33,408 bases of DNA from a virus, in the UHGV virus genome UHGV-0124208; one strand, written 5' to 3'. Shown here one piece after another: positions 1 to 33,408 of this stretch. Position 1 is the first letter of the stretch. Every line of letters begins with the position of its first letter. The notes below the pieces were generated by a model. The model was given only the letters and a program-made list of their open reading frames with translations. It had not been told where the DNA came from and did no database searches. Position numbers and translations under genes: made by a program.

Positions 1-1138
1 CGCTGAGCGGGAACACGGACGCGAGATCGTCAACAAACTCGCACATCAGCAGGTTCTGGTATTCGTCCGGGCTGTACTCCAAGCGTAGCTGGTCGAGGTC
101 GAACAGGTTACAGCCGCCGCGCACCGCATCTTCCACGGTGACTATCTGGCGGTATTGCCCGTCTGCGCACAGCAGGCCTGGGGCCAGATTGCTGTGGGAC
201 AGGTCGATGTCCACCTTGTCAGCTTTGTTGCGTCCACGGTTGAACAGCGCACCGGACCAGAACGGATAAGCACTGTGGGTCAGGCTGGATGGCGTGGAAA
301 AATAGGTTTGTCGCCATTTTTTGTGAATAGCCATCCCGGAAGCCACTTTGCGCAGCTCCTGGAATTTCGGTATCCAGAAATATTCATCCAGATACAGGTT
401 GCCGTGATAACTCTGGGCCGTGCGGGCATTGGTGCCGAGGAAGTAAAGCGTGGCTCCGTTAGGAAGCACCATCGGATCGCCTTTCAGCTCCACCTCGACT
501 TCTTTGGCGAAGTCGATGATGTATTGTTTAAAGACGTGGGCCTGAGCCTTACTGGCAGAAAGGAAAATCTGGTTACGTCCGGTAAGTAGGGCGTCAATCA
601 GGGCTTCACGGGCAAAATAGAAGGTCGCGCCGATCTGGCGTGACTTCAGCAGGTTGCGGATGCGGTTGGTTTTTCCGGCTTCCCACCAGTGGCGCTGGTA
701 GTTGAACATGGAGGAATGGAAGATTTCTTCCAGCTTCTCAATCTGCTCATCGGTGAAAACATTCTTTTCCGGCTGACGGCGTGGGCCTTTATTGCGGTTG
801 GCGACGTTAGGGTTTAAGTCGGCTTCGTTGCCGCCATTGTTAAACTTGCCGATCCGCGCGTGGCGCTCAGACTGGCGCGCCAGCAGGTCAATCTCTTTGA
901 AATCTTTCCCTTCTTTGTGCTCCTTCATAATGAGCTGGCAGTAGCGTGCGGCGGTGGTGAGCTGCATCTGATCCAGCGGCCCATAGTCACCCCACTTGTC
1001 GCGTTTTTTCCAGCTGTGAACGGTTGCAACTTTCTCGCCCAGCATTTCAGCAATGCGGGCTACGCGGTATCCCTGAAAGTACAGCAGCATGGCCTGCCGA
1101 CGGGGATCGAGATCTGCGGGTGTCAGTGTGGTGTTCAT
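1..1138 (-). CDS. P: Terminase large (ATPase) subunit gpP, N-terminal 379 codons; ORF runs off the window start and continues in frame at 32783..33408
   Basis: Manual translation of the minus strand from ATG (rc of cat at 1136-1138) gives [36 protein letters not shown]... with no stop down to position 1. It sits divergent from O, as in P2. Not in the ORF track because it lacks an in-window stop. Confidence 0.85.
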
Positions 1139-3192: not shown

Positions 3193-3843
3193 ATGAGCCT
3201 GAGTCCCGCACGGCAGCATCGCCTGCGCGTTCAGGCTGAACAGGCCGCCCGCGAGGGCGGCAGCGTTCGCCACGCGTCGGGCTATGACCTGATGCTGCTG
3301 CAACTGGCGGAAGACCGACGCCGTCTCAAGGGTGTTCAGTCCACGGTCAAAAAAGCGGAAATCAAAGTGGAGCTGCTGCCGAAGTACGCCGCCTGGGCGG
3401 AGGGTGTTCTGGCTGCCGGAGGCGCTCAACAGGATGACGTGCTGATGTACGTGATGCTGTGGCGTATTGATGCCGGAGATTATGCCGGGGCGCTGGAGAT
3501 CGGGCGTCATGCCCTGCGTCATGGCTGGGTGATGCCGCTGGGTAACCGCAACGTGCAGACCGTGCTGGCAGAGGAAATGGCAGACGCGGCACAGAGCGCA
3601 ATGCTTGCCACTACCGGCTTTGATGCCGATCTGTTGCTGCAGACGCTGGAGCTGACAGACGGTCTGGATATGCCGGACCAGTCACGGGCGCGTCTGCATA
3701 AAGCGATTGGCGCTGTCCTGAGTGAAAGTAATCCGGCTTCCGCCCTTAATCATCTCAACCATGCGTTACAGCTCGATCCCCGCTGTGGCGTGAAAAAAGA
3801 CAAACAGCAGCTGGAGCGCAGACTGCGCAATGACAGCCGCTGA
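3193..3843 (+). CDS. M: Terminase small subunit / endonuclease gpM
   Basis: 216-aa ORF after N; contains MYVMLWRIDAGDYAGALEIGRHAL, which resembles the P2 gpM core as I recall it. Confidence 0.8.
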   Translation: MSLSPARQHRLRVQAEQAAREGGSVRHASGYDLMLLQLAEDRRRLKGVQSTVKKAEIKVELLPKYAAWAEGVLAAGGAQQDDVLMYVMLWRIDAGDYAGALEIGRHALRHGWVMPLGNRNVQTVLAEEMADAAQSAMLATTGFDADLLLQTLELTDGLDMPDQSRARLHKAIGAVLSESNPASALNHLNHALQLDPRCGVKKDKQQLERRLRNDSR

Positions 3844-6649: not shown

Positions 6650-7088
6650 ATTGCAGAAGGTGGACGACTGGCTGAGTGCCTTGCTGGCGAATCTGGAGCC
6701 AGCCGCAAGAAGCCGCATGATGCGCCAGCTGGCGCAGGAACTGCGCCGGACACAGCAGCAGAATATCAGGATGCAGCGCAACCCTGATGGCAGCAGTTAT
6801 GAACCGCGCAGGCTAACAGCAAGCAGCAAAAAGGGGCGCATCAAACGTCAGATGTTTACAAAGCTGCGCACCACAAAATACCTGAAAACTGCTGCCAGCG
6901 CCGATTCTGCCAGCGTGCAGTTTGAAGGTAAGGTGCAGCGCATTGCCCGCGTTCACCATTACGGCTTGCGTGATCGCGTCAGTCGCAAAGGACCTGAGGT
7001 CCGTTATGCAGAGCGTCGCCTTCTGGGTGTAAATGATGATGTTGAGGCAATGACCCGCGACATGATTCTGCAATGGCTGGCGGGGTGA
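6642..7088 (+). CDS. S: Tail completion protein gpS
   Basis: 148-aa ORF overlapping the R stop (GTG start as in the track); position and size as P2 gpS. Confidence 0.75.
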   Translation: MAELQKVDDWLSALLANLEPAARSRMMRQLAQELRRTQQQNIRMQRNPDGSSYEPRRLTASSKKGRIKRQMFTKLRTTKYLKTAASADSASVQFEGKVQRIARVHHYGLRDRVSRKGPEVRYAERRLLGVNDDVEAMTRDMILQWLAG

Positions 7089-20520: not shown

Positions 20521-21573
20521 TTACGGGGTAATGCCAACCGCTGCCGCCACTTTGTCGCCACTTGGCAGCGTTGCCAGAGGATTGAAACGGAGCGCCGTTT
20601 CCAGATGATCTGGTGCCAGATGTGCGTAACGCATAGTCATTTTTATATCGTGGTGTCCGAGAATTTTTTGTAAGGCGAGAATGTTTCCACCCGACATCAT
20701 GAAGTGCGCCGCAAACGTATGGCGCAGAACGTGTGTGAGTTGACCGCGAGGGAGCACGATAGACGTTTTTTCCATCACGGATAAAAATTGAAAATAGCAG
20801 TCTGTAAAGAAATTGAACCCATCAAGCGCCATGATCTCTTCGTAAAGCTCTTTACTGATAGGGATGCTTCTGTTTTTCTTCCCCTTCGTTCTGACAAAGG
20901 TAATTCGGTATTTGGTCACCTGTGAGCGGGTAAGATTTACGGCTTCACGCCAGCGTGCGCCTGTGCTTAAGCATATCTTAACTACCAGTGCCAGAATTGG
21001 GTCCTGACGTTTGCAATCAGCCAGCAATTCAACAATCTGCTCATGGGTAAGCCATGCCATCTCTTTTTCTGCGATGGTGAATTTTCGCATGTTCTCCAGT
21101 GGGTTCGGATACGACCATTCGCCCAGACGGGATAGTTCGCTAAAAACACTACTTAGATAGCTTTGCTCCAGGTTAATGGTGACCGGGCTTGCTCCTTTCT
21201 TCCATTTCTCGCTGAAGTAGATCTCGCCTGTCAGGCGTTTATCTCGATAGTGGGCAAACATTTTAGAGGTGAGATCGGTTGCAAGAGGATTACCCAGAGC
21301 GTCAACCATCAACAGCAATTTGTCATAGACATGCTGCCCAGCTGTCAGAGATTTACCATGTAGTTTGAACCATAGCTCAACCACGTCTTTCAGTGTTCGA
21401 CGATCCACTGATTCACCCAGCCAGGGCTTTGCTTCGGTTTCTTCTATCGTGTGGCGCTCAAAAGCCAGAGCTTCGCCTTTGGTGGCGAATTGTTTACGCA
21501 CCCGACGCCCACTACGTCCGGCGGGGTAACATTCGCAAAGCCATTTTCCTGTGGTGAGTTTTCGTACTGCCAT
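20521..21573 (-). CDS. int: Tyrosine integrase
   Basis: 350-aa minus-strand ORF; the C-terminus has HVLRHTFAAHF...GHHDIKMTMRYAHL (the R..HxxR..Y tyrosine-recombinase signature); adjacent to attP as in P2. Confidence 0.9.
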   Translation of the reverse strand: MAVRKLTTGKWLCECYPAGRSGRRVRKQFATKGEALAFERHTIEETEAKPWLGESVDRRTLKDVVELWFKLHGKSLTAGQHVYDKLLLMVDALGNPLATDLTSKMFAHYRDKRLTGEIYFSEKWKKGASPVTINLEQSYLSSVFSELSRLGEWSYPNPLENMRKFTIAEKEMAWLTHEQIVELLADCKRQDPILALVVKICLSTGARWREAVNLTRSQVTKYRITFVRTKGKKNRSIPISKELYEEIMALDGFNFFTDCYFQFLSVMEKTSIVLPRGQLTHVLRHTFAAHFMMSGGNILALQKILGHHDIKMTMRYAHLAPDHLETALRFNPLATLPSGDKVAAAVGITP

Positions 21574-21646: not shown

Positions 21647-23416
21647 TCATACGTCAGGGGTAATCCAGTCGACTAAAGCCTCAATACTTTCGAAATCTGC
21701 ACAGATATCTGAAAGAGGTTGTGTATCTGCTTTTGTTTTGAAATCAGCCCATACTGATTCATTTTTTTCTGTAAGACCCAAATGGTTTTCTATCGAACCA
21801 TTTAGCCAAATCCAAATATTTGCATTTCTCAGTTTTGCGGCTAATGATGACAAAAATTCTCTGGCGCCGGGCTTTTGAGACATAATAGCAAATGCTTCAG
21901 CTGCGGTAGTGTTACTACCCTTTGTAGGCAAACCGGATCCATCGAGAGTGCATTCTCCATTAGCATGCATACTTCTCAAGATTTCTTTTAGTCGTAAAAT
22001 ATCCTCGTCATTATGTTCTAAGAAGTTGTTCCTTATTGCACCGCGGAACGCAAAATCTAAATCAACAATTGCTTTTGTAGGTATATCCATTGAATTTAGA
22101 ATTTGCATCGTTTTAGATATACTTTCAACGGACCCTGTTTCAATTAGTGCTATTTGCATCTGACCTAATGTTTTATTTTTAACTTTGTTAAAAATAAATG
22201 GGAGCAGAGTAGTCTCTGTTTTACCTTCTGTTAGTATTACATTGTTAGCAAACAAAACTTTTGAAGACTGTGTTAATGAAAATAAATGGGTTGCTTGTGC
22301 TGGTCGTTGTTCGATTACTTTATTGACTGCTTCTTTTAATGTTAATCTGCAATGAGTGCCACGCTGACTGTTTTTTCTGATTAACACAGTGTCTTTTGCT
22401 AAGTCAGAGGTAATCATTTGAGATGAATGGGTAGAGAAAATTATTTGATATCCATGATGAGATAGTGTTTTTAGAGATTCTCTAATTTGTTCGATAGCAA
22501 ATGGGTGAAGATATAACTCAGGTTCATCTATTAACAGTAGAGTAGTTGTTTTAATATCATCACCGTTGGTTATATCAGCTAAATGTCTTATTAGAGACAT
22601 CTGAATCGAACGCTGTGTGCCATGACCATAAGAAGAACAGTCACGAGCAATGCCGGGAAATGAATCTTCATATACTTTTACAGTCCCAGATTTAAATATA
22701 TCCTTGAAGTCAGGGAGTTCGAAGTGTAGTTTTAAACTTATCCCAGGGAAGAAATCAGCAAGTTTACTACTTATTGAATCATCAATATCATTGAGGTCCG
22801 ATATTCGTTTATTACCGGTTGCAGTCATTCTTCTATTAACGGCATTTAAATGGCTTAGTATCCTTTGAGTGTGCTTCTCTTCTATTTTGCAACTCAATTC
22901 TGCCAGCAACTTACCTATTGTAGTTCCTGTTTTTGATTTTGAAGAATCATCCGCTGCATTTTCCATTGCACCTATACGTATTGGGTCTGGAAATAAAGCT
23001 TTTATCGCATTCTCAATACCCGTTGGTGATGTCCTGAATTCGTTATTTTCTGGGTTTTTAATTAATAATCTGACGTCTTTTGCACTTTGAGCACCAACAG
23101 TCTGTTGACGCTTAAATATCAATACCCCATCAATAATGTAGGGTGAAATTCTAGTTCTGTTTTCTTCTGTTAAAGCTGACAAAATATCTTCAGTAATACC
23201 CTTAACTGTACCTATAACTTCTATAGGGTTATCTGGATTAGTATAATCATCAGAGGACAAAAGTTTTTTCTTAAAAAGCCATTCAATAGCATTTAAAATC
23301 GTTGACTTACCAGCATTGTTGTAACCGATTAAAGGCGTGAATGAAGAAAAATTGATATCAATATCTTTGCAAGATCTAAAGTTTTTTATAGAAATCTTTG
23401 AAAGATGATGATTCAT
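21647..23416 (-). CDS. old: OLD-family ATP-dependent nuclease (N-terminal ABC-type ATPase + C-terminal Toprim), P2 Old-like, single-gene
   Basis: 589-aa ORF. N-terminal Walker A in ISIKNFRSCK...LIGYNNAGKSTILNAI; central FGHGTQRSIQM and LLIDEPELYLHP (Walker B-like); C-terminal VILTEGKTET...VDLDF Toprim-like acidic motifs. AT-rich relative to flanks. Located between cI and int. Confidence 0.75.
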   Translation of the reverse strand: MNHHLSKISIKNFRSCKDIDINFSSFTPLIGYNNAGKSTILNAIEWLFKKKLLSSDDYTNPDNPIEVIGTVKGITEDILSALTEENRTRISPYIIDGVLIFKRQQTVGAQSAKDVRLLIKNPENNEFRTSPTGIENAIKALFPDPIRIGAMENAADDSSKSKTGTTIGKLLAELSCKIEEKHTQRILSHLNAVNRRMTATGNKRISDLNDIDDSISSKLADFFPGISLKLHFELPDFKDIFKSGTVKVYEDSFPGIARDCSSYGHGTQRSIQMSLIRHLADITNGDDIKTTTLLLIDEPELYLHPFAIEQIRESLKTLSHHGYQIIFSTHSSQMITSDLAKDTVLIRKNSQRGTHCRLTLKEAVNKVIEQRPAQATHLFSLTQSSKVLFANNVILTEGKTETTLLPFIFNKVKNKTLGQMQIALIETGSVESISKTMQILNSMDIPTKAIVDLDFAFRGAIRNNFLEHNDEDILRLKEILRSMHANGECTLDGSGLPTKGSNTTAAEAFAIMSQKPGAREFLSSLAAKLRNANIWIWLNGSIENHLGLTEKNESVWADFKTKADTQPLSDICADFESIEALVDWITPDV

Positions 23417-23459: not shown

Positions 23460-24398
23460 TTATTGTATTGTTAAGATAATGCTGGCTATAATTTGAATAT
23501 CCTCAATGGAACACTCAAAATCCTTACTCCCACCAGAAACAAGAATTTTGTTCTTAGGTAAACGAGTTAACTCTTTTAAAGATAACTCATTGTCAATTCC
23601 TACTAACCATTTTCCATCTCTAATTAGGTGAAATTCTTTATCACATATGACATGTTTTTCTCCATTGCTTACAAACATCAAGCTGCTAGTTTCTTGCTTC
23701 GGAAGTAGACACCGATCCATGGATAAAAAACCTGACTCGACAAGCACGCCATTGACCAAATTGAACTTATTTAAAATTACAGTGTTTTCTTCTTGTGAAC
23801 TATTTGGTGTTTCGATTCCTGTAACTAGCCAGGCGAGATCCGCTTTGGTTTCTAATGCGCATTTAATCACCCAATCCGCAGGGAAAGAATCTCGCATGTA
23901 TCGTGTGGCTAATGTGCTTTTTGAAATACCAAGGTGGTCGGCTAAGGCTTGGCGGGTTTTAAACCCGTAAGCATTAACAATCCTCTCTATCGCGGCTTTT
24001 CCTCCGTTAGTAAGCTCAATGTGATTCTCAATGCGGCGCTTAAAGGATGATTGATGAGCGTTGCTGTTAAACCCCTCATGTGGGACTGTTTCATCATGTT
24101 GTTCCACATAAGGGGGGAAACTTTCTTCTGCATTGTTAGAACCAAAGGCCAGCCATTCTAGGGATGCGCCAGTTTCCATTGAACATATAACAACCCAATC
24201 AGCAGGGAAGGTATCGCGTGCATATCTATTAGCCATTGTGCTTTGTGAAATACCAAGATGCTTACAGAAGGCTTGGCGTGATTTGAAACCATAGGCCTTG
24301 AGTATCCTCTCAATGACTTTTTGCCCTCCACGATTCTGCATGACCATAGCTTTCAGACTATCTTCAATATGGCGAAATGTGATTTTTTGAGTTGACAT
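23460..24398 (-). CDS. cI: Immunity repressor CI, coliphage 186 type, with a tandemly duplicated N-terminal DNA-binding domain
   Basis: 312-aa ORF. Residues about 28-85 (VIERILKAYGFKSRQAFCKHLGISQSTMANRYARDTFPADWVVICSMETGASLEWLAFG) and about 128-185 (AIERIVNAYGFKTRQALADHLGISKSTLATRYMRDSFPADWVIKCALETKADLAWLVTG) are two copies of the 186 CI N-terminal domain motif; about 125-aa C-terminal domain. Divergent from apl-cII. Confidence 0.75.
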   Translation of the reverse strand: MSTQKITFRHIEDSLKAMVMQNRGGQKVIERILKAYGFKSRQAFCKHLGISQSTMANRYARDTFPADWVVICSMETGASLEWLAFGSNNAEESFPPYVEQHDETVPHEGFNSNAHQSSFKRRIENHIELTNGGKAAIERIVNAYGFKTRQALADHLGISKSTLATRYMRDSFPADWVIKCALETKADLAWLVTGIETPNSSQEENTVILNKFNLVNGVLVESGFLSMDRCLLPKQETSSLMFVSNGEKHVICDKEFHLIRDGKWLVGIDNELSLKELTRLPKNKILVSGGSKDFECSIEDIQIIASIILTIQ

Positions 24399-26290: not shown

Positions 26291-27144
26291 GCACCATCCT
26301 GAAATGGGCGGGAAATAAAACCGCAATTATGTCCGAACTGAAAAAACACCTTCCTGCTGGCCCGCGACTGGTTGAACCTTTCGCGGGTTCCTGTGCTGTG
26401 ATGATGGAGACGGATTATCCAAGCTATCTGGTTGCGGATATTAATCCTGATTTAATCAACCTCTATAAAAAGGTTGCCGCTGATTGTGAATCGTTTATAT
26501 CTCGCGCCAGAGTTTTATTTGAGATCGCAAACAGGGAGGTGGCTTATTACAACATAAGGCAGGAGTTTAATTACTCCACTGAAATTACTGATTTCATGAA
26601 AGCGGTATATTTCCTGTATCTCAATCGTCACGGTTACCGTGGTTTATGTCGCTATAACAAGAGCAGGCATTTCAACATTCCCTACGGTAATTATAAAAAT
26701 CCGTATTTCCCTGAAAAAGAACTTCGCACATTTGCAGAAAAAGCCCAGCGAGCAACGTTTGTCTGCGCCAGCTTTGATGAAACGCTGGCGATGTTGAAGG
26801 CGGGGGATGTGGTGTATTGCGATCCGCCGTATGACGGTACGTTTTCCGGCTATCACACTGATGGTTTCACTGAAGATGACCAGTATCACCTGGCATCCGT
26901 TCTTGAACATCGGTCATCAGAAGGACATCCGGTCATTGTTTCTAACAATGACACATCCCTGATTCGTTCGCTGTATCGCAATTTTACTCACCACTATATC
27001 AAGGCAAAACGCAGCATCGGCGTGTCAGCTGGCGAGGGTAAATCTGCAACAGAAATCATTGCTGTTTCCGGGCCGAGTTGCTGGTTGGGATTTGATCCTT
27101 CGCGTGGCGTGGATAGTTCTGCCGTGTACGGAGTGTGTGTATGA
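26287..27144 (+). CDS. DNA N6-adenine methyltransferase (Dam/D12 class)
   Basis: From ATG 26287: [11 protein letters not shown]...EPFAGSCAV... (AdoMet-binding region) and VYCDPPYDG (DPPY catalytic motif); overlaps the upstream stop (ATGA) and the A start. Confidence 0.85.
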
Positions 27145-29555
27145 GTCATGACGATATGAACAATTGCAGCGGCTTTAACGAGGCCGCCGCAGCATTTTCA
27201 TGGAACGGCCCGAAAAAGGCCATTAACCCTTATCTGGACCCGGCGGAAGTTGCGCCGGAGTCTGCACTTTCAAACCTGATCACTCTGTACGCTGCCGATA
27301 ACGAGCAGGAACAACTGCGCCGCGAGGCACTGAGTGAGCAGGTCTGGGAGCGTTATTTCTTTAATGAATCCCGTGATCCTGTCCAGCGCGAAATGGAGCA
27401 GGATAAGCTCATTAGCCGGGCAAAGCTGGCGCATGAGCAGCAGCGTTTTAATCCGGACATGGTCATTCTGGCGGACGTAAACGCCCAGCCTTCCCATATC
27501 AGCAAGCCGCTGATGCAACGTATTGAATACTTCAGCAGCCTGGGCAGGCCAAAGGCTTATTCCCGCTATTTGCGTGAGACGATTAAGCCATGTCTGGAGC
27601 GACTGGATTGTGTACGTGACAGTCAGCTATCTGTTTCTTTCCGTTTTATGGCAAGCCATCAAGGGCTGGAGGGTCTGCTGATCCTGCCTGAAATGAGCCA
27701 GGATCAGGTGAAACGCCTGTCCACCCTGGTAGCAGCGCATATGAGCATGTGTCTTGAGGACGCTTGTGGTGATTTGTATGCCACCGATGACGTTAAGCCA
27801 GAAGAAATCCGCAAGACATGGGAAAAGGTGGCAGCGGAAACCCTGCGTCTGGATGTTATCCCGCCTGCGTTTGAGAAACTTCGTCGGAAAAGAAACCGCC
27901 GCAAACCAGTGCCCTATGAACTCATCCCGGGTTCGCTGGCGCGTATGTTGTGTGCCGACTGGTGGTATCGGAAATTATGGAAGATGCGTTGCGAATGGCG
28001 GGAAGAGCAGTTGCGTGCTGTCTGCCTGGTCAGCAAAAAAGCATCCCCCTATGTCAGCTATGAAGCCGTGATGCATAAACGTGAGCAGCGCCGTAAGTCG
28101 CTGGAGTTTTTTCGTTCTCATGAACTGGTGAACGAAGACGGCGACACGCTGGATATGGAAGATGTGGTAAACGCCAGCAGCAGCAACCCGGCGCATCGCC
28201 GCAATGAGATGATGGCCTGTGTTAAAGGTCTGGAGCTTATCGCGGAAATGCGCAGTGACTGTGCCGTTTTCTACACTATCACCTGTCCGTCGCGTTTCCA
28301 TTCCACGCTCAATAACGGCAGACCAAACCCGACCTGGACAAACGCGACGGTAAGACAAAGTAGCGATTATCTGGTCGGCATGTTTGCTGCATTTCGTAAG
28401 GCTATGCATAAAGCCGAGTTGCGCTGGTATGGCGTGCGGGTAGCTGAGCCGCATCATGACGGTACTGTGCACTGGCATCTCATGTGTTTCATGCGTAAAA
28501 AAGACCGCCGCGCCATCACTGCATTACTGCGTAAGTTTGCCATCCGTGAAGACCGCGAGGAGCTGGGCAATAACACGGGACCACGCTTTAAGTCTGAGCT
28601 GATAAACCCGCGCAAAGGTACGCCAACAAGCTATATCGCGAAATACATCAGTAAGAACATTGACGGGCGTGGTCTGGCTGGGGAGATCAGCAAGGAAACG
28701 GGTAAATCCCTGCGTGATAACGCTGAATACGTTAATGCCTGGGCGTCTCTGCATCGTGTTCAGCAATTCCGCTTCTTTGGCATTCCGGGGCGTCAGGCTT
28801 ACCGTGAACTGCGATTGCTGGCTGGTCAGGCGGCAAGGCAACAGGGTGACAAAAAAGCAGGTGCGCCGGTACTGGATAACCCGCGTCTTGATGCAATCCT
28901 GGCTGCTGCTGATGCTGGTTGTTTTGCCACCTACATCATGAAGCAGGGCGGCGTTCTGGTTCCCCGCAAATATCACCTCATCAGAACTGCTTATGAAATC
29001 AACGAAGAACCGACCGCATATGGCGATCACGGTATTCGTATTTATGGCATCTGGTCACCCATTGCAGAGGGCAAGATCTGCACTCATGCGGTGAAGTGGA
29101 AAATGGTTCGTAAGGCCGTTGACGTTCAGGAGGCGGCAGCCGACCAGGGCGCTTGCGCCCCTTGGACTCGTGGCAATAACTGTCCCCTTGCTGAAAATTT
29201 GAACCAACAAGGGAAAGACAAATCAGCTGATGGGGACTCCAGAACGGATATTACCCGTATGAATGACAAGGAGTTGCACGATTACCTGCACAGTATGAGC
29301 AAAAAAGAGCGCCGGGAACTGGCTGCAAGGTTACGCCAGGTGAAACCGAAACGGCGTAAAGACTACAAACAGCGAATTACAGACCATCAGCGACAGCAGC
29401 TCGTCTATGAACTGAAGTCCAGGGGATTTGATGGCAGCGAGAAAGAAGTCGATTTGCTCCTTCGCGGCGGCAGTATTCCGTCAGGAGCAGGCCTGCGTAT
29501 CTTCTATCGGAACCAGCGTCTGAAGGAAGATGATAAGTGGCGGAACCTGTATTAA
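27141..29555 (+). CDS. A: Replication initiator gpA (rolling-circle HUH endonuclease)
   Basis: About 804-aa ORF (ATG 27141) containing [13 protein letters not shown] (HUH-type motif of P2 gpA-family initiators); position as P2 A. Confidence 0.85.
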
Positions 29556-29707: not shown

Positions 29708-29896
29708 ATGCAGGACTATTTTTTGGAGTCTTTGAAGCTCCAGCGCATTGATTTTTTTCTTAAGCTTGTAGCGGCTAGTGAGTGTAGTGATGAAGAGAAG
29801 GGGCTGGCTCTGCAGTGGGTTTCTGAATTGACTGATGAACTCATGGCAAAAATCAGAAGCCACGAATACAACCGCTCAATGGATGTCATCAGCTGA
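29708..29896 (+). CDS. Small SOS-regulated protein, first gene of the Tum-like module (function unknown; candidate antirepressor component)
   Basis: 62-aa ORF with RBS AGGAGG, directly downstream of the LexA box. Confidence 0.55.
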   Translation: MQDYFLESLKLQRIDFFLKLVAASECSDEEKGLALQWVSELTDELMAKIRSHEYNRSMDVIS

Positions 29897-29906
29897 GGTG
29901 ACTTTT

Positions 29907-30140
29907 ATGCGCATTGAAATAATGATCGATAAAGAGCAGAAGATTAGCCAGTCTACCCTGGACGCACTTGAATCCGAGCTTTACCGCAATCTGCGCCCCC
30001 TGTATCCCAAAACGGTAATTCGCATTCGCAAAGGTAGCTCTAACGGTGTGGAACTAACCGGACTGCAACTGGATGAAGAAAGAAAACAAGTGATGAAAAT
30101 TATGCAGAAGGTGTGGGAGGACGACAGCTGGCTGCATTAA
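29907..30140 (+). CDS. DinI-family protein (Tum C-terminal-domain-like)
   Basis: From ATG 29907: MRIEIMIDKEQKISQSTLDALESELYRNLRPLYPKTVIRIRKGSSNGVELTGLQLDEERKQVMKIMQKVWEDDSWLH, which aligns by eye with E. coli DinI (MRIEVTIAK...; ...ILQETWESADDW). Confidence 0.75.
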   Translation: MRIEIMIDKEQKISQSTLDALESELYRNLRPLYPKTVIRIRKGSSNGVELTGLQLDEERKQVMKIMQKVWEDDSWLH

Positions 30141-30332
30141 GAAATGTTGCCCCCAGGAGGATTCATTCTGATGGGGGCTAGTTTGGGCAATGAGTGAAAT
30201 AAGGCGTAAGGTGGGCGGTTATTTTGATAAGTGATCGTCCGCTTTGTGTCAGAAGCAGAAGTGGGAGTGTCTGAGACTCTCTAAAAGTTGATGATTCACT
30301 TACAAAACCATTTTCCTGATGGATGCTTACAC

Positions 30333-30668
30333 TTACGAATGATCATTCTGTTTAGTCTTCATGAGAAAATCCCGAATCTTTGCCAAGTTTGAATTTTCGG
30401 GGATTGAATCCATGTACGGATCACGCTCAAACACTAATTGCTCAGATTCAACGAAAGCCTGCCACTCTACTGGGTCTAGCTCAAATCCCATTGCTGTCAT
30501 ATCACTTTCATCTTCCCCCTCGATCCAGTGGACTAAATAAAACAATTCATCATCAGGAGAATCATCCTCACCATCAACAATATCAACATCGGTTACAGTG
30601 ATACGTAGGGTGGGATCGATTTTTGAGACATAAATTCCTAACTGTGGTATAGGGGGAATATTGTTCAT
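30333..30668 (-). CDS. Highly acidic small protein of unknown function (accessory / moron gene)
   Basis: 111-aa minus-strand ORF with a strong RBS (AAAGGAGTTTCC before ATG); D/E-rich (e.g. DVDIVDGEDDSPDDE, EGEDESD); AT-rich; lies between the DinI-like gene and the putative cos site. Confidence 0.65.
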   Translation of the reverse strand: MNNIPPIPQLGIYVSKIDPTLRITVTDVDIVDGEDDSPDDELFYLVHWIEGEDESDMTAMGFELDPVEWQAFVESEQLVFERDPYMDSIPENSNLAKIRDFLMKTKQNDHS

Positions 30669-31047
30669 GGAAACTCCTTTTATTGGTGTTTGCTATTTGA
30701 ATAAAAATACGCCAAACAGAGTGTTAACTGTGAATATGGAAAGAATCGTTGTAAGTACCCCGCTTAGGTGTCCCATTCTATTTTAGAGGTTCTCGTGCAT
30801 ATGGATTATGTTATCTGAAAGTTAACTTCCGCTTCCCGTTCACAGCGAACATTCATCTTTGTAAACCCGTATGATCCGTTTTTCAAGTGGCCATTCAGAT
30901 ACGGATTTTCACTTCCTTGACAGTGCATGACTATGCTGCATGAAATCGCATGATCGATTGAGGATCGTCTTTGCTCAGATCCGCCAGAACTGGCGGGCTT
31001 TTGCTCATGTCATGCATGTGCATGAAAACCACTGCATAAAGCGGGCA

Positions 31048-31066
31048 GGCGTGGCGGGGATACGAG
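31048..31066. other. Candidate cos (cohesive-end) site
   Basis: GGCGTGGCGGGGATACGAG: the first 13 nt match the 19-nt cohesive end I recall for 186 (GGCGTGGCGGGGAAAGCAT; P2 GGCGAGGCGGGGAAAGCAC). Lies in the only sizeable non-coding stretch between A and Q. The last 6 nt differ, so the exact ends are uncertain. Confidence 0.45.
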
Positions 31067-31155
31067 CGCGCGCTGATGGGGGACGCAGTGCTTTTGGCAT
31101 AGTTATGAGGTAGAATTTCAAAATACTTTTTAGCGCTGTTGGAGGTATAGACAAA

Positions 31156-31701
31156 ATGGACGTTATAACTGGAGTTGCAGAGTTTTTTCGAAAAGTACCT
31201 GCAGCATTTCTTGTGGCTATTACATGTGTTTTAGGTCTTATACTTTTTCTGCCAGACTCTTTGGCAGTAAAAGTGGCTGTTGATGGCTTTCGTAATGAGT
31301 ATAGGATTTTTATTGGACCTGCATTTTTACTGTCTGTATCTTATTTAGTTGCAAGAGTCTATCTCTCTTTCTATGACTTACTTGGTGAAAGGCAGGCTAA
31401 GAAGGTACGCACTTCCTACCTTGAGAAGCTAACAGCAGAAGAAAAAGGATATTTAAAGTCTTATATTACCGAAGGTGTTAATTCACTTATGTGTGGGCCT
31501 GAGGATGGGGTCATGGGGGGACTTGTGGCTAAGGGGATTACTTATAGAGCCACCAGTGTTGGGGATATGATCTACGGTTTTGCTTTCAACTTACAGCCAT
31601 GGGCGCGTGAACATTTAGAGAAAAATAGTCATTTATTAGATGGGGCTATTGGGCGTGCAATGACTCCAAGAGAAAAATTAAACTTTAGATTGGGACGCTA
31701 A
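31156..31701 (+). CDS. Membrane protein with two N-terminal TM helices, unknown function (accessory gene between cos and Q)
   Basis: 181-aa ORF with RBS GGAGG; hydrophobic segments AAFLVAITCVLGLILFLP and IFIGPAFLLSVSYLVARVYL followed by a soluble domain; AT-rich; followed by a strong hairpin. Confidence 0.65.
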   Translation: MDVITGVAEFFRKVPAAFLVAITCVLGLILFLPDSLAVKVAVDGFRNEYRIFIGPAFLLSVSYLVARVYLSFYDLLGERQAKKVRTSYLEKLTAEEKGYLKSYITEGVNSLMCGPEDGVMGGLVAKGITYRATSVGDMIYGFAFNLQPWAREHLEKNSHLLDGAIGRAMTPREKLNFRLGR

Positions 31702-31730
31702 CCAGTCACACATTACCAATGTGTGACTGG
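31702..31730. terminator. Perfect 13-bp stem / 3-nt loop hairpin between the convergent 181-aa gene and Q (putative bidirectional terminator)
   Basis: CCAGTCACACATT-acc-AATGTGTGACTGG read directly, followed on the plus strand by a T-rich run (TGGTGGTTATTTCTTTTATT). Confidence 0.6.
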
Positions 31731-31745
31731 TGGTGGTTATTTCTT

Positions 31746-32783
31746 TTATTCAATGTCAAATTTATATGGTTCAAAAGAAATAACCTTTTCCCCCAACCAC
31801 TCATTTAGTTCTTCGAGTCTTTTTTGTAGCGGTATTAACTCATTACGGACAAAGACGCGGCTGGCTTTTTCCACATCACCAAAGCCGCCGGTATTGTTGG
31901 GAATAATCCCCATCATCTGCGGCGGTACGCGGTGTGCTGCCATCATGTCATCGCGGCTCACGTTCTTAATGTTCAGAAATTCATCCTTTGCTGCAACCTC
32001 AGACAGTGGGATGATCTGGATGCCGTCTTTTTTACCGTTGGGCGAATACATAAACAGGTTGCGGAAGTTGCCCGGACCTTTGGCGCTTTTCATCGCGTTG
32101 CGGAGGTTGTTCACATCCTCCTGGTTCTGCGCGGCGTCAGTCATATACATGATGAAGCCTGCATGGCTGCCGTTGATGTAATACTTACGGCGGAACAGCG
32201 TGGCGGACTCGTTGAGCAGGGCTGACGGAATGGCAGAAAGATAACCGGGCAGGCCGTAGATCTCCTGATTAATATCCGGTTCCATCAGATGAAAAATGCT
32301 GCCTTTCGTGAACTGATACGGCTGGGTTGTCATACCGTATTGCACAAACCAGTAGGTATCCAGGTCTAATCCGCGTCGGGTGTATTTTGCCAGCGCAGGT
32401 TCAAGGGCGATCACTTCACCGAAGCGGTTCGTGCGTTTCTCCAGATAGGCATTGCCAAATACCAGATAGTCCTGCACAAAACGCGAAAAAGCCTGCTGGC
32501 TGAGCAGAGGATGAGGGATATAGGTACTGGTCAGAATGTTACACTTTACTGCAATCGGGGAACTGTGATGCACGGCAGCGCGGAAGGTGCGCGCCAGTCC
32601 GTTAAAGCTGACGGGAGGCTCATACCAGCGGTCCATCTGTACGCATTCCACATAGTCCAGCAGTTCACGGCGGTCCAGAACAGGAACGGGATCGCCGAAG
32701 CTGAATGCTTCGGCTGTAGTTTGACTTTTAAGCTGGATCTGATTCGTCGCCGCAGCGCGGTTCTTCTTACTCTTTCCCATCAA
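31746..32783 (-). CDS. Q: Portal protein gpQ
   Basis: 345-aa minus-strand ORF immediately downstream of, and overlapping, the terminase gene; size and order as P2 Q. Confidence 0.85.
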   Translation of the reverse strand: MMGKSKKNRAAATNQIQLKSQTTAEAFSFGDPVPVLDRRELLDYVECVQMDRWYEPPVSFNGLARTFRAAVHHSSPIAVKCNILTSTYIPHPLLSQQAFSRFVQDYLVFGNAYLEKRTNRFGEVIALEPALAKYTRRGLDLDTYWFVQYGMTTQPYQFTKGSIFHLMEPDINQEIYGLPGYLSAIPSALLNESATLFRRKYYINGSHAGFIMYMTDAAQNQEDVNNLRNAMKSAKGPGNFRNLFMYSPNGKKDGIQIIPLSEVAAKDEFLNIKNVSRDDMMAAHRVPPQMMGIIPNNTGGFGDVEKASRVFVRNELIPLQKRLEELNEWLGEKVISFEPYKFDIE

Positions 32784-33408
32784 AAAATCTCCACAATATT
32801 GCTGGTATTGGCGGATTCGCCCTGCAGCGGTTCGTTAAACAGTGCGTGCATCGTTGCCCAAGCCAGATCGGCGTGGCTGGCTTCTTCGCTGCGGCTGGCT
32901 TCATAGGTCGGGCGGTTGCCACTGGCGGTGGTGGCGCGACGGATTGCCATGAATGACTGCGCAATGTCGGTGTGCCCGGCGTCAAACTCCAGACGGCGGT
33001 GGCTGATAATGTCGTAGGCCTTGAGTACCAGGGCGTTTTTAACGTTGGGGTTGTAGACAAACTCCCGGACGGCAGGAAAGAACGCTTTCACGTTCTCATA
33101 AACCCCGTGACCAACGCCGGTTGAGTCGATACCGATGTATGTCACGTTGTACTGTTCAGTCAGTTTTTTGATGGCGTTAGCCTGGGCGCGGAAGTCCATC
33201 CCGCGCCACTGGTGACGCTCAAGAATGCGGAACTTACCGCCCGGCACGGCTGGCGGTGCCACCACCACGCACCCGGCGCTGTCGCCGTTTTGCGTACCTT
33301 TTGCCGGGTCATAACCGATCCACACTTCGCGCCAGCCAAACGGGCGCAGGGCCAGTGCATGAAAGTCGGTCCAGACTTCCCAACTGTCCACCATGCACGC
33401 CTGCAGCT
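32780..33408 (-). CDS. P: Terminase large subunit gpP, C-terminal portion (208 codons + 2 nt); N-terminal part is at 1..1138
   Basis: Minus-strand ORF open to the window end; positions 33407-33408 plus position 1 form a GAG codon, so the two pieces join in frame (379 + 1 + 208 = 588 codons; P2 gpP is about 590 aa). Confidence 0.85.
   Translation of the reverse strand, partial: LQACMVDSWEVWTDFHALALRPFGWREVWIGYDPAKGTQNGDSAGCVVVAPPAVPGGKFRILERHQWRGMDFRAQANAIKKLTEQYNVTYIGIDSTGVGHGVYENVKAFFPAVREFVYNPNVKNALVLKAYDIISHRRLEFDAGHTDIAQSFMAIRRATTASGNRPTYEASRSEEASHADLAWATMHALFNEPLQGESANTSNIVEIF

Follow-up and report, generated by a model that had tools for sequence, protein, structure and literature searches.

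Short direct repeats crowded beside a sequence that resembles a phage cohesive end raise the question of whether the locus is a DNA-packaging site and, if it is, how much of it the terminase would recognise. Such a locus occurs in the window (the whole 33,408-nucleotide stretch of viral DNA analysed here, UHGV virus genome UHGV-0124208), for which a first-pass annotation had proposed a putative cos site preceded by a cluster of GCATGA repeats. We consider it probable (roughly 0.8) that positions 30923-31073 are the cos (DNA-packaging) site of a P2-like phage, consisting of a nicking core and a one-sided terminase recognition array.

The window holds a complete, circularly permuted P2-like genome in which the structural, lysis, tail, int/cI and gene-A modules were all found. 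That it is circularly closed and permuted follows from the large terminase gene, which runs across the ends of the window. The nearest deposited phages are the Klebsiella phages KP12 and 4LV2017, which are 96% identical to it across 81-86% of its first 25 kb. The genes and elements around the locus, and the two terminase genes, are as follows.

27135-29555: gpA
29835-30140: DinI/Tum-like gene
30333-30668, minus strand: 111-aa ORF in the left (gene-A side) hotspot
30923-31073, plus strand: the whole conserved cos block, 151 bp, from -125 to +26 relative to the top-strand cut
31156-31701, plus strand: SieB-family superinfection-exclusion gene (PF14163, 4.5e-25)
31701-31731: strong hairpin, perfect over 14 bp, between the SieB-like gene and the 3' end of Q
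31746-32783, minus strand: portal protein, gpQ homologue (Pfam Phage_portal), pointing toward cos
32780-33408, minus strand: C-terminal part of the large terminase gpP; the gene continues at 1-1138 over the junction
1-1138, minus strand: N-terminal part of gpP, including its helix-turn-helix (HTH) domain
3193-3843, plus strand: small terminase subunit, gpM homologue, acting in trans (Pfam PF05944, 1.4e-40)

The cos block is placed between the accessory region on the gpA side and the 3' end of the portal gene Q, as in P2 and 186. The portal protein is 91-100% identical to its IMG/VR relatives. The SieB-like gene is cargo of the hotspot between cos and Q, and the hairpin at 31701-31731 is probably a bidirectional terminator, the counterpart of tQ/tW in P2 and 186. 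On the gene-A side, searches of Pfam and PADLOC matched nothing to the 111-aa ORF. A full-length Old-family nuclease (21647-23416, minus strand; PADLOC Old, 6e-234) is found elsewhere in the window, flanked by the integrase (20521-21573) and cI (23460-24398), whereas the old gene of P2 adjoins cos; the position of this gene suggests a third accessory-gene slot in the window's lineage. The cI-like ORF (23460-24398, minus strand) is 312 aa long and contains two stretches that match the Phage_CI_repr HTH domain, it may have a duplicated N-terminal domain or a start that was called too far upstream.

The repeat coordinates given in the first-pass annotation are correct, with GCATGA on the plus strand at 30925, 30938, 30948 and 31020 and GCATGT at 31014. 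GCATGA had been taken as the repeated motif; the copies are real, but the conserved core is YGCATG in the window's clade and GCAT across the family. The GCATGT at 31014 is likewise present but is not conserved in relatives, which keep the inverted copy CATGCA instead. An extra GCATGA lies on the minus strand at 31010-31015, so that the proximal pair forms the palindrome TCATGCA-tg-TGCATGA at 31010-31025. Over its full length the window is not enriched in GCATGA (24 sites, with 29 expected), and five of the 24 sites crowd into 101 bp, the densest cluster in the window. The Poisson tail for this cluster is 2e-8 per 110-bp scanning window, or about 7e-6 after the whole window has been scanned, and none of 20,000 random placements equalled it; the clustering is non-random. 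The repeats, with positions counted from the top-strand cut, are the following.

30924-30929, plus strand: R1, distal repeat TGCATG, GCAT at -123 (YGCATG in 118/125 clade blocks, GCAT in 65/66 satellite cos regions)
30937-30943, plus strand: R2, distal repeat TGCATGA, GCAT at -110 (YGCATG in 123/125 clade blocks, GCAT in 66/66 satellites)
30947-30953, plus strand: R3, distal repeat CGCATGA, GCAT at -100 (YGCATG in 122/125 clade blocks, GCAT in 66/66 satellites)
31010-31025, no strand: proximal palindromic pair, GCAT at -28 and its inverted copy at -37

Each of the four GCAT sites reads YGCATG in at least 94% of 125 unique clade blocks. For the proximal pair, TGCATG is present at 31019 in 119 of the 125 blocks and CATGCA at 31011 in 110. 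The spacing of R1, R2 and R3 is 13 and 10 bp, which is about one helical turn. A further TGCAT at 31033 is specific to the window and is not conserved among the 125 blocks.

Comparison with related phages delimits the block. Relatives were collected as 80 IMG/VR loci found through the portal protein and 80 more found through the exact cos pattern. In 62 unique relatives anchored on the cos core, the major-allele frequency per column is about 0.4 up to 30922, rises to 0.9-1.0 at 30923-31073 and is again about 0.4 from 31074. The ends of BLAST HSPs fall at 30922-30925 on the left and at 31073-31077 on the right. Against deposited phages the sole match was an HSP of about 152 bp (30922-31074) with 86-91% identity; the records matched include Fels-2, SopEPhi, RE-2010, SEN8, the Yersinia phage MLG42 and many Klebsiella prophage-derived records. 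The island is kept in more than 120 related phage contigs in which the flanking cargo is unrelated on both sides, and cos and Q are separated by anything from about 180 bp to more than 2450 bp. Among the relatives no other non-coding island is conserved as well as this block, which is present in one copy in the window. These edges and the unrelated flanks fit the cos-adjacent hotspots described in PMC9122126.

Among complete Escherichia coli genomes, 1,305 of 5,426 match part of the query 30300-31800. All eight of the best-scoring matches listed start at 30922-30925 and extend rightward with about 98% identity. In the best-scoring E. coli prophage matches the cos-sieB-Q arrangement is alike at about 98% identity, and the sequence left of 30922 is different.

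Part of the block belongs to the clade only. The segment GATCGATTGAGGATC (30951-30965, no strand) contains two GATC (Dam) sites and is conserved at 0.96-0.98 within the clade, it is not conserved in 186, P2 or P4. One contig, IMGVR_UViG_3300011853_000021, carries two full cos blocks in inverted orientation (3441-3474, minus strand, and 6695-6728, plus strand) about 3.2 kb apart. The homology of the paired copies reaches beyond the block, and the pair probably reflects either misassembly or an inverted duplication.

The right-hand part of the block was compared with the termini of 186 and P2. For each phage the two ends of the record were joined, the first 19 bases being annotated as cohesive ends, and the window aligns with them column for column. 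The elements of this part are listed here, with the three 19-nt ends below them.

31019-31073, plus strand: counterpart of the 55-bp core shared by P2 and P4 (TGCAT...YGCGCGC), which runs TGCAT-AAAAC...cos19...YGCGCGC
31041-31047, plus strand: left nick half-site GCGGGCA, cut at its 3' end; GCGSGCR stands directly 5' of the top-strand cut in 9/9 lineages
31048-31066, plus strand: predicted 19-nt 5'-protruding cohesive end, aligned with 186 cos (1..19) and P2 cosL
31067-31073, minus strand: right nick half-site, bottom strand GCGCGCG, cut at its 3' end; GCGCGCR stands directly 5' of the inferred bottom-strand cut in 9/9 lineages

Window cohesive end, 19 nt: GGCGTGGCGGGGATACGAG
186 cohesive end, 19 nt: GGCGTGGCGGGGAAAGCAT
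P2 cohesive end, 19 nt: GGCGAGGCGGGGAAAGCAC

The 19-mer of the window is identical to that of 186 at 15 of 19 positions and to that of P2 at 14 of 19. The 13-mer GGCGTGGCGGGGA, on which the putative cos had been based, is confirmed at 31048-31060 as the sole exact copy in the window, and it equals annotated positions 1-13 of the 186 cohesive end (13/13). The full 19-mer is identical to bases 1-19, the putative cos, of Salmonella phage SEN8, whose record starts at the base equivalent to 31048 and ends at the equivalent of 31047. The SEN8 cos is itself putative and was assigned during annotation, not by experiment (PMC5427200). The same 19-mer is present in 61 of 67 relatives in the window's clade. 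The putative cos is thus strongly supported by homology with 186, P2 and SEN8 and by its position beside the portal gene Q.

The cos of P2 and P4 is given as 55 bp in passages of PMC9594776, PMC2231350 and PMC3931495 that quote Ziermann and Calendar (1990). Over this core P2 and P4 are identical at 52 of 55 positions, and positions 31019-31073 of the window are identical to P2 at 42, to P4 at 43 and to 186 at 44 of the 55. The two half-sites mirror each other with twofold symmetry, 19 nt apart, in nine lineages; this symmetric feature was derived from our own alignment and is not a published definition. This symmetry accounts for the end of conservation at +26 (31073). The terminase of P2, 186 and P4 is established to cut cos and leave 19-nt cohesive ends, and the twofold symmetry supports the prediction that the 19-nt stagger holds for the window phage too.

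The repeats had been thought to differ from those of P2. This is wrong: the GCAT array is shared by P2, 186 and P4, where it stands equally far from the cut. Nine lineages were compared (the window, SEN8, 186, P2, P4, YenM201.16, ENT90, pro483 and LPM4), with positions counted from the top-strand cut, and GCAT was found in them as follows.

Window, SEN8, 186, P4 and Yersinia phage YenM201.16: -123, -110, -100 and -28
P2: -122, -110, -100 and -28
ENT90: -124, -111, -101 and -28
pro483: -110, -100 and -28 (R1 missing)
Aeromonas phage LPM4: -28 only

In strict register, the pairwise identity between lineages is 0.71 in the motif columns and 0.2-0.4, about random, in the spacers. In the Aeromonas phage vB_AsaM_LPM4 three copies of AGGATC at about -128 to -96 replace the GCAT triple, and the 55-bp core and a GC dyad are kept. 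This AGGATC triple may represent a switch in packaging specificity.

The P4-like satellites carry the array as well. P4 has been reported to share only cos with P2 (PMC9122126, PMC9594776). Among 66 unique cos regions from 74 P4-like satellites, 64 keep all four GCAT positions, and this retention extends to satellites in which Psu is only 64-68% identical and the intervening sequence has diverged. Retention of the GCAT positions in satellites is the strongest comparative test of the predicted array. Satellites bearing the ATACGAG variant of cos that is found in the window were also sought. The exact-pattern scan of IMG/VR gave 80 loci, nearly all of which have gpA upstream, Q downstream or both. 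The one apparent P4-sized exception, IMGVR_UViG_3300013991_000001, is a P2-like fragment with an IS inserted after cos; its IS-type transposase (rve) lies at 1840-2673, directly downstream of cos. The variant occurs in none of the 74 satellite loci from the Psu-based search.

Both terminase subunits are encoded in the window. The gpM homologue is 49-51% identical to P2 M and 186 R, and the PDB gave no match to a solved structure of a gpM relative. The gpP of the window is a 591-aa ORF over the window junction, 63% identical to P2 gpP, with a Terminase_5 HTH domain (residues 11-68) followed by an ATPase (Terminase_6N) and also a nuclease domain. The HTH helix TV..WK.RD.W of gpP is invariant across the window, P2, 186 and LPM4. 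Co-variation of gpM or of the gpP HTH with the distal array was uninformative, the proteins being 40-54% identical in all comparisons, including those with LPM4. A passage of PMC2231350 gives monomeric circles as the preferred packaging substrate of P2 and P4.

If it acts as its homologues in P2 and 186 do, the gpP/gpM terminase would nick the top strand between 31047 and 31048 and the bottom strand between 31066 and 31067. The nuclease of gpP would be positioned on the two half-sites, each cut falling just 3' of GCGSGCR, and the predicted product is the 19-nt 5' overhang GGCGTGGCGGGGATACGAG. The conserved sequence beyond the nicking core sits on one side of the cut, with the palindromic GCAT pair and an A-tract at -38 to -18, and further out an optional GC dyad at -67 to -52 and the three direct GCAT repeats at -123, -110 and -100. 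We infer that this one-sided GCAT array would serve in terminase recognition and assembly, in the manner of lambda cosB. Should the likeness to lambda hold, the end bearing the array (30923-31047) would be the first to be packaged. The candidate readers of the array are gpM, the N-terminal helix-turn-helix of gpP, or both. It is plausible that the repeats are terminase binding sites, as their positional conservation in phages and P4-type satellites suggests. Since gpP has its own N-terminal HTH, gpM is not the only candidate reader, and a negative result from a gel shift that uses gpM alone could therefore be misleading.

The GC dyad described in the first-pass annotation was also found, as an inverted repeat CCGCCAG/CTGGCGG.

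30981-30996, no strand: GC-rich dyad CCGCCAG-aa-CTGGCGG, followed by CTTTTG, centred at -59.5

A dyad with the same centre and a different sequence is present in 186, P4, ENT90 and several satellites. The stems across the window and these genomes are CCGCCAG, CGCCAG, ACCGCGCC, ACGGGGCCA and CGCC or CACC, and the last pair includes a compensatory change from G-C to A-T. P2 has no such dyad, those of pro483 and YenM201.16 are weak, and the fold energy of the window's dyad is ordinary; we therefore rejected it both as a strong terminator and as a universal element. It would be an auxiliary element, possibly a transcription stop before cos, and not a defining part of the site.

The dyad and its T-run might mainly be an intrinsic terminator that halts rightward transcription of the DinI/Tum-like operon before cos, with no role in terminase recognition. 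The terminator scan does give a weak match at 30980-30997 followed by CTTTTGCTCA, the T-run is conserved in the window's clade, and ENT90 has a strong terminator-like version with a 9-bp stem and T8. The stem in the window is, however, just 7 bp with four T and an unremarkable fold z-score of -1.1, 186 and P4 have the dyad at the same centre with no T-run, the annotated terminator t95b of 186 lies further upstream, and P2 has no dyad at all. We regard this reading as rather unlikely, and it is compatible with the cos explanation and not exclusive of it. A different proposal is that only the 55-bp core (31019-31073) packages, the distal GCAT triple and the dyad being passively retained or used otherwise, for example as a promoter or operator of the adjacent accessory genes. 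The shared cos of P2 and P4 is described at just this length in the passages cited above, R1 is missing from pro483, and LPM4 has none of the three distal repeats. The annotated starts of the old/tin transcript of P2 (33424/33426, minus strand) put a -35-like TTGAAT over R1 by our own reading of the sequence, and on this reading part of the old promoter of P2 may coincide with the left edge of the cos block (33424-33463 of the P2 record). Against it, the GCAT positions are fixed while the spacers are randomised, and the array is constant while the cargo varies in nearly every relative. The array is also kept in the P4-type satellites and in 186, where the neighbouring gene reads toward cos and there is no leftward gene that would need a promoter, and no sigma-70-like promoter was found in 30200-31800. 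We consider this proposal improbable.

The GCAT elements might also be bound by a DNA-bending accessory protein of the host or phage in place of the terminase, which would shape cos as IHF does at lambda I1. The repeats are about one helical turn apart and roughly in phase with the proximal pair, the distances from R3, R2 and R1 to the proximal GCAT being 72, 82 and 95 bp. With one mismatch allowed, 30880-31110 contains no match to the IHF consensus WATCAANNNNTTR. The lineages with the shared motif also conserve both terminase subunits and the gpP HTH, and no enterobacterial nucleoid protein is known to recognise TGCAT; together these points make a bending protein very improbable. That the region is no packaging site, its likeness to cos being a remnant or a coincidence, is effectively excluded, since the genome, which is apparently complete and has its terminase, portal and capsid genes intact, contains the block once, and the block is conserved beyond any other non-coding island of its relatives.

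From the reading of the block as a cos site with a one-sided array a wider proposal can be made. The functional packaging signal of the P2/P4 type may be, in place of the textbook 55 bp, a unit of about 150 bp in which the four fixed GCAT elements form the array for terminase assembly, swaps of the distal elements such as AGGATC in LPM4 set the specificity between helper and satellite, and the edges of the array are the borders of two cos-adjacent defence-gene hotspots. We put this forward tentatively, at somewhat less than even odds. Dissection of the P2/P4 cos reportedly showed that about 125 bp are needed, which we have not used as evidence. The prediction fixes the genome ends, so that 31048 can serve as the first base of a re-oriented record. 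P2-like phages have an accessory-gene hotspot on either side of cos, and the prediction also places the exact borders of the two, at 30923 (left) and 31073 (right). For the design of P2/P4 cosmids it suggests keeping about 125 bp from the cut toward gene A and not the 55-bp core alone.

The predicted site can be compared with several known cos systems. The lambda cos, with cosN, a one-sided cosB with R sites and an IHF site, appears to follow a like logic, in which a symmetric staggered nicking site is combined with one-sided repeats. There is no sequence relationship between the two; the overhang is 12 nt in lambda and 19 nt in the window, the window has no IHF consensus, and the terminase subunits belong to different families, the P2-type large subunit bearing its own HTH.

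P4 and the P4-like satellites share the architecture of the window at the same distances from the cut. The satellites sampled carry 19-mers of the P2/186 type (AAAGCAC, AGAGCAT and similar), unlike the ATACGAG of the window.

The site can also be set beside those of 186 and P2. In all three the 19-nt GC-rich 5' overhang begins GGCG(T/A)GGCGGGGA, and GCGSGCR half-sites at both nicks, the AAAAC tract and the location by the 3' end of Q are held in common. The overhangs differ at positions 14-19, which are TACGAG in the window, AAGCAT in 186 and AAGCAC in P2. Unrelated sequence separates the repeats, the two GATC sites of the window's clade are missing from 186 and P2, and P2 has no dyad.

The closest counterparts are found in SEN8 and the Fels-2/SopEPhi/RE-2010 group (Felsduovirus) and in related P2-like phages of Klebsiella and Yersinia. 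In these the 19-mer is identical and the 151-bp block is 86-91% identical, and the repeats, dyad, half-sites and location between the accessory genes and Q are as in the window. The window differs from them in its cargo, the SieB-like gene between cos and Q, and in the extra TGCAT at 31033. The predicted cos of the window is of the Fels-2/SEN8 type. It is a standard site of the P2 family and of an already known kind, and in this family the repeats are ancient components of the cos region, fixed in position.
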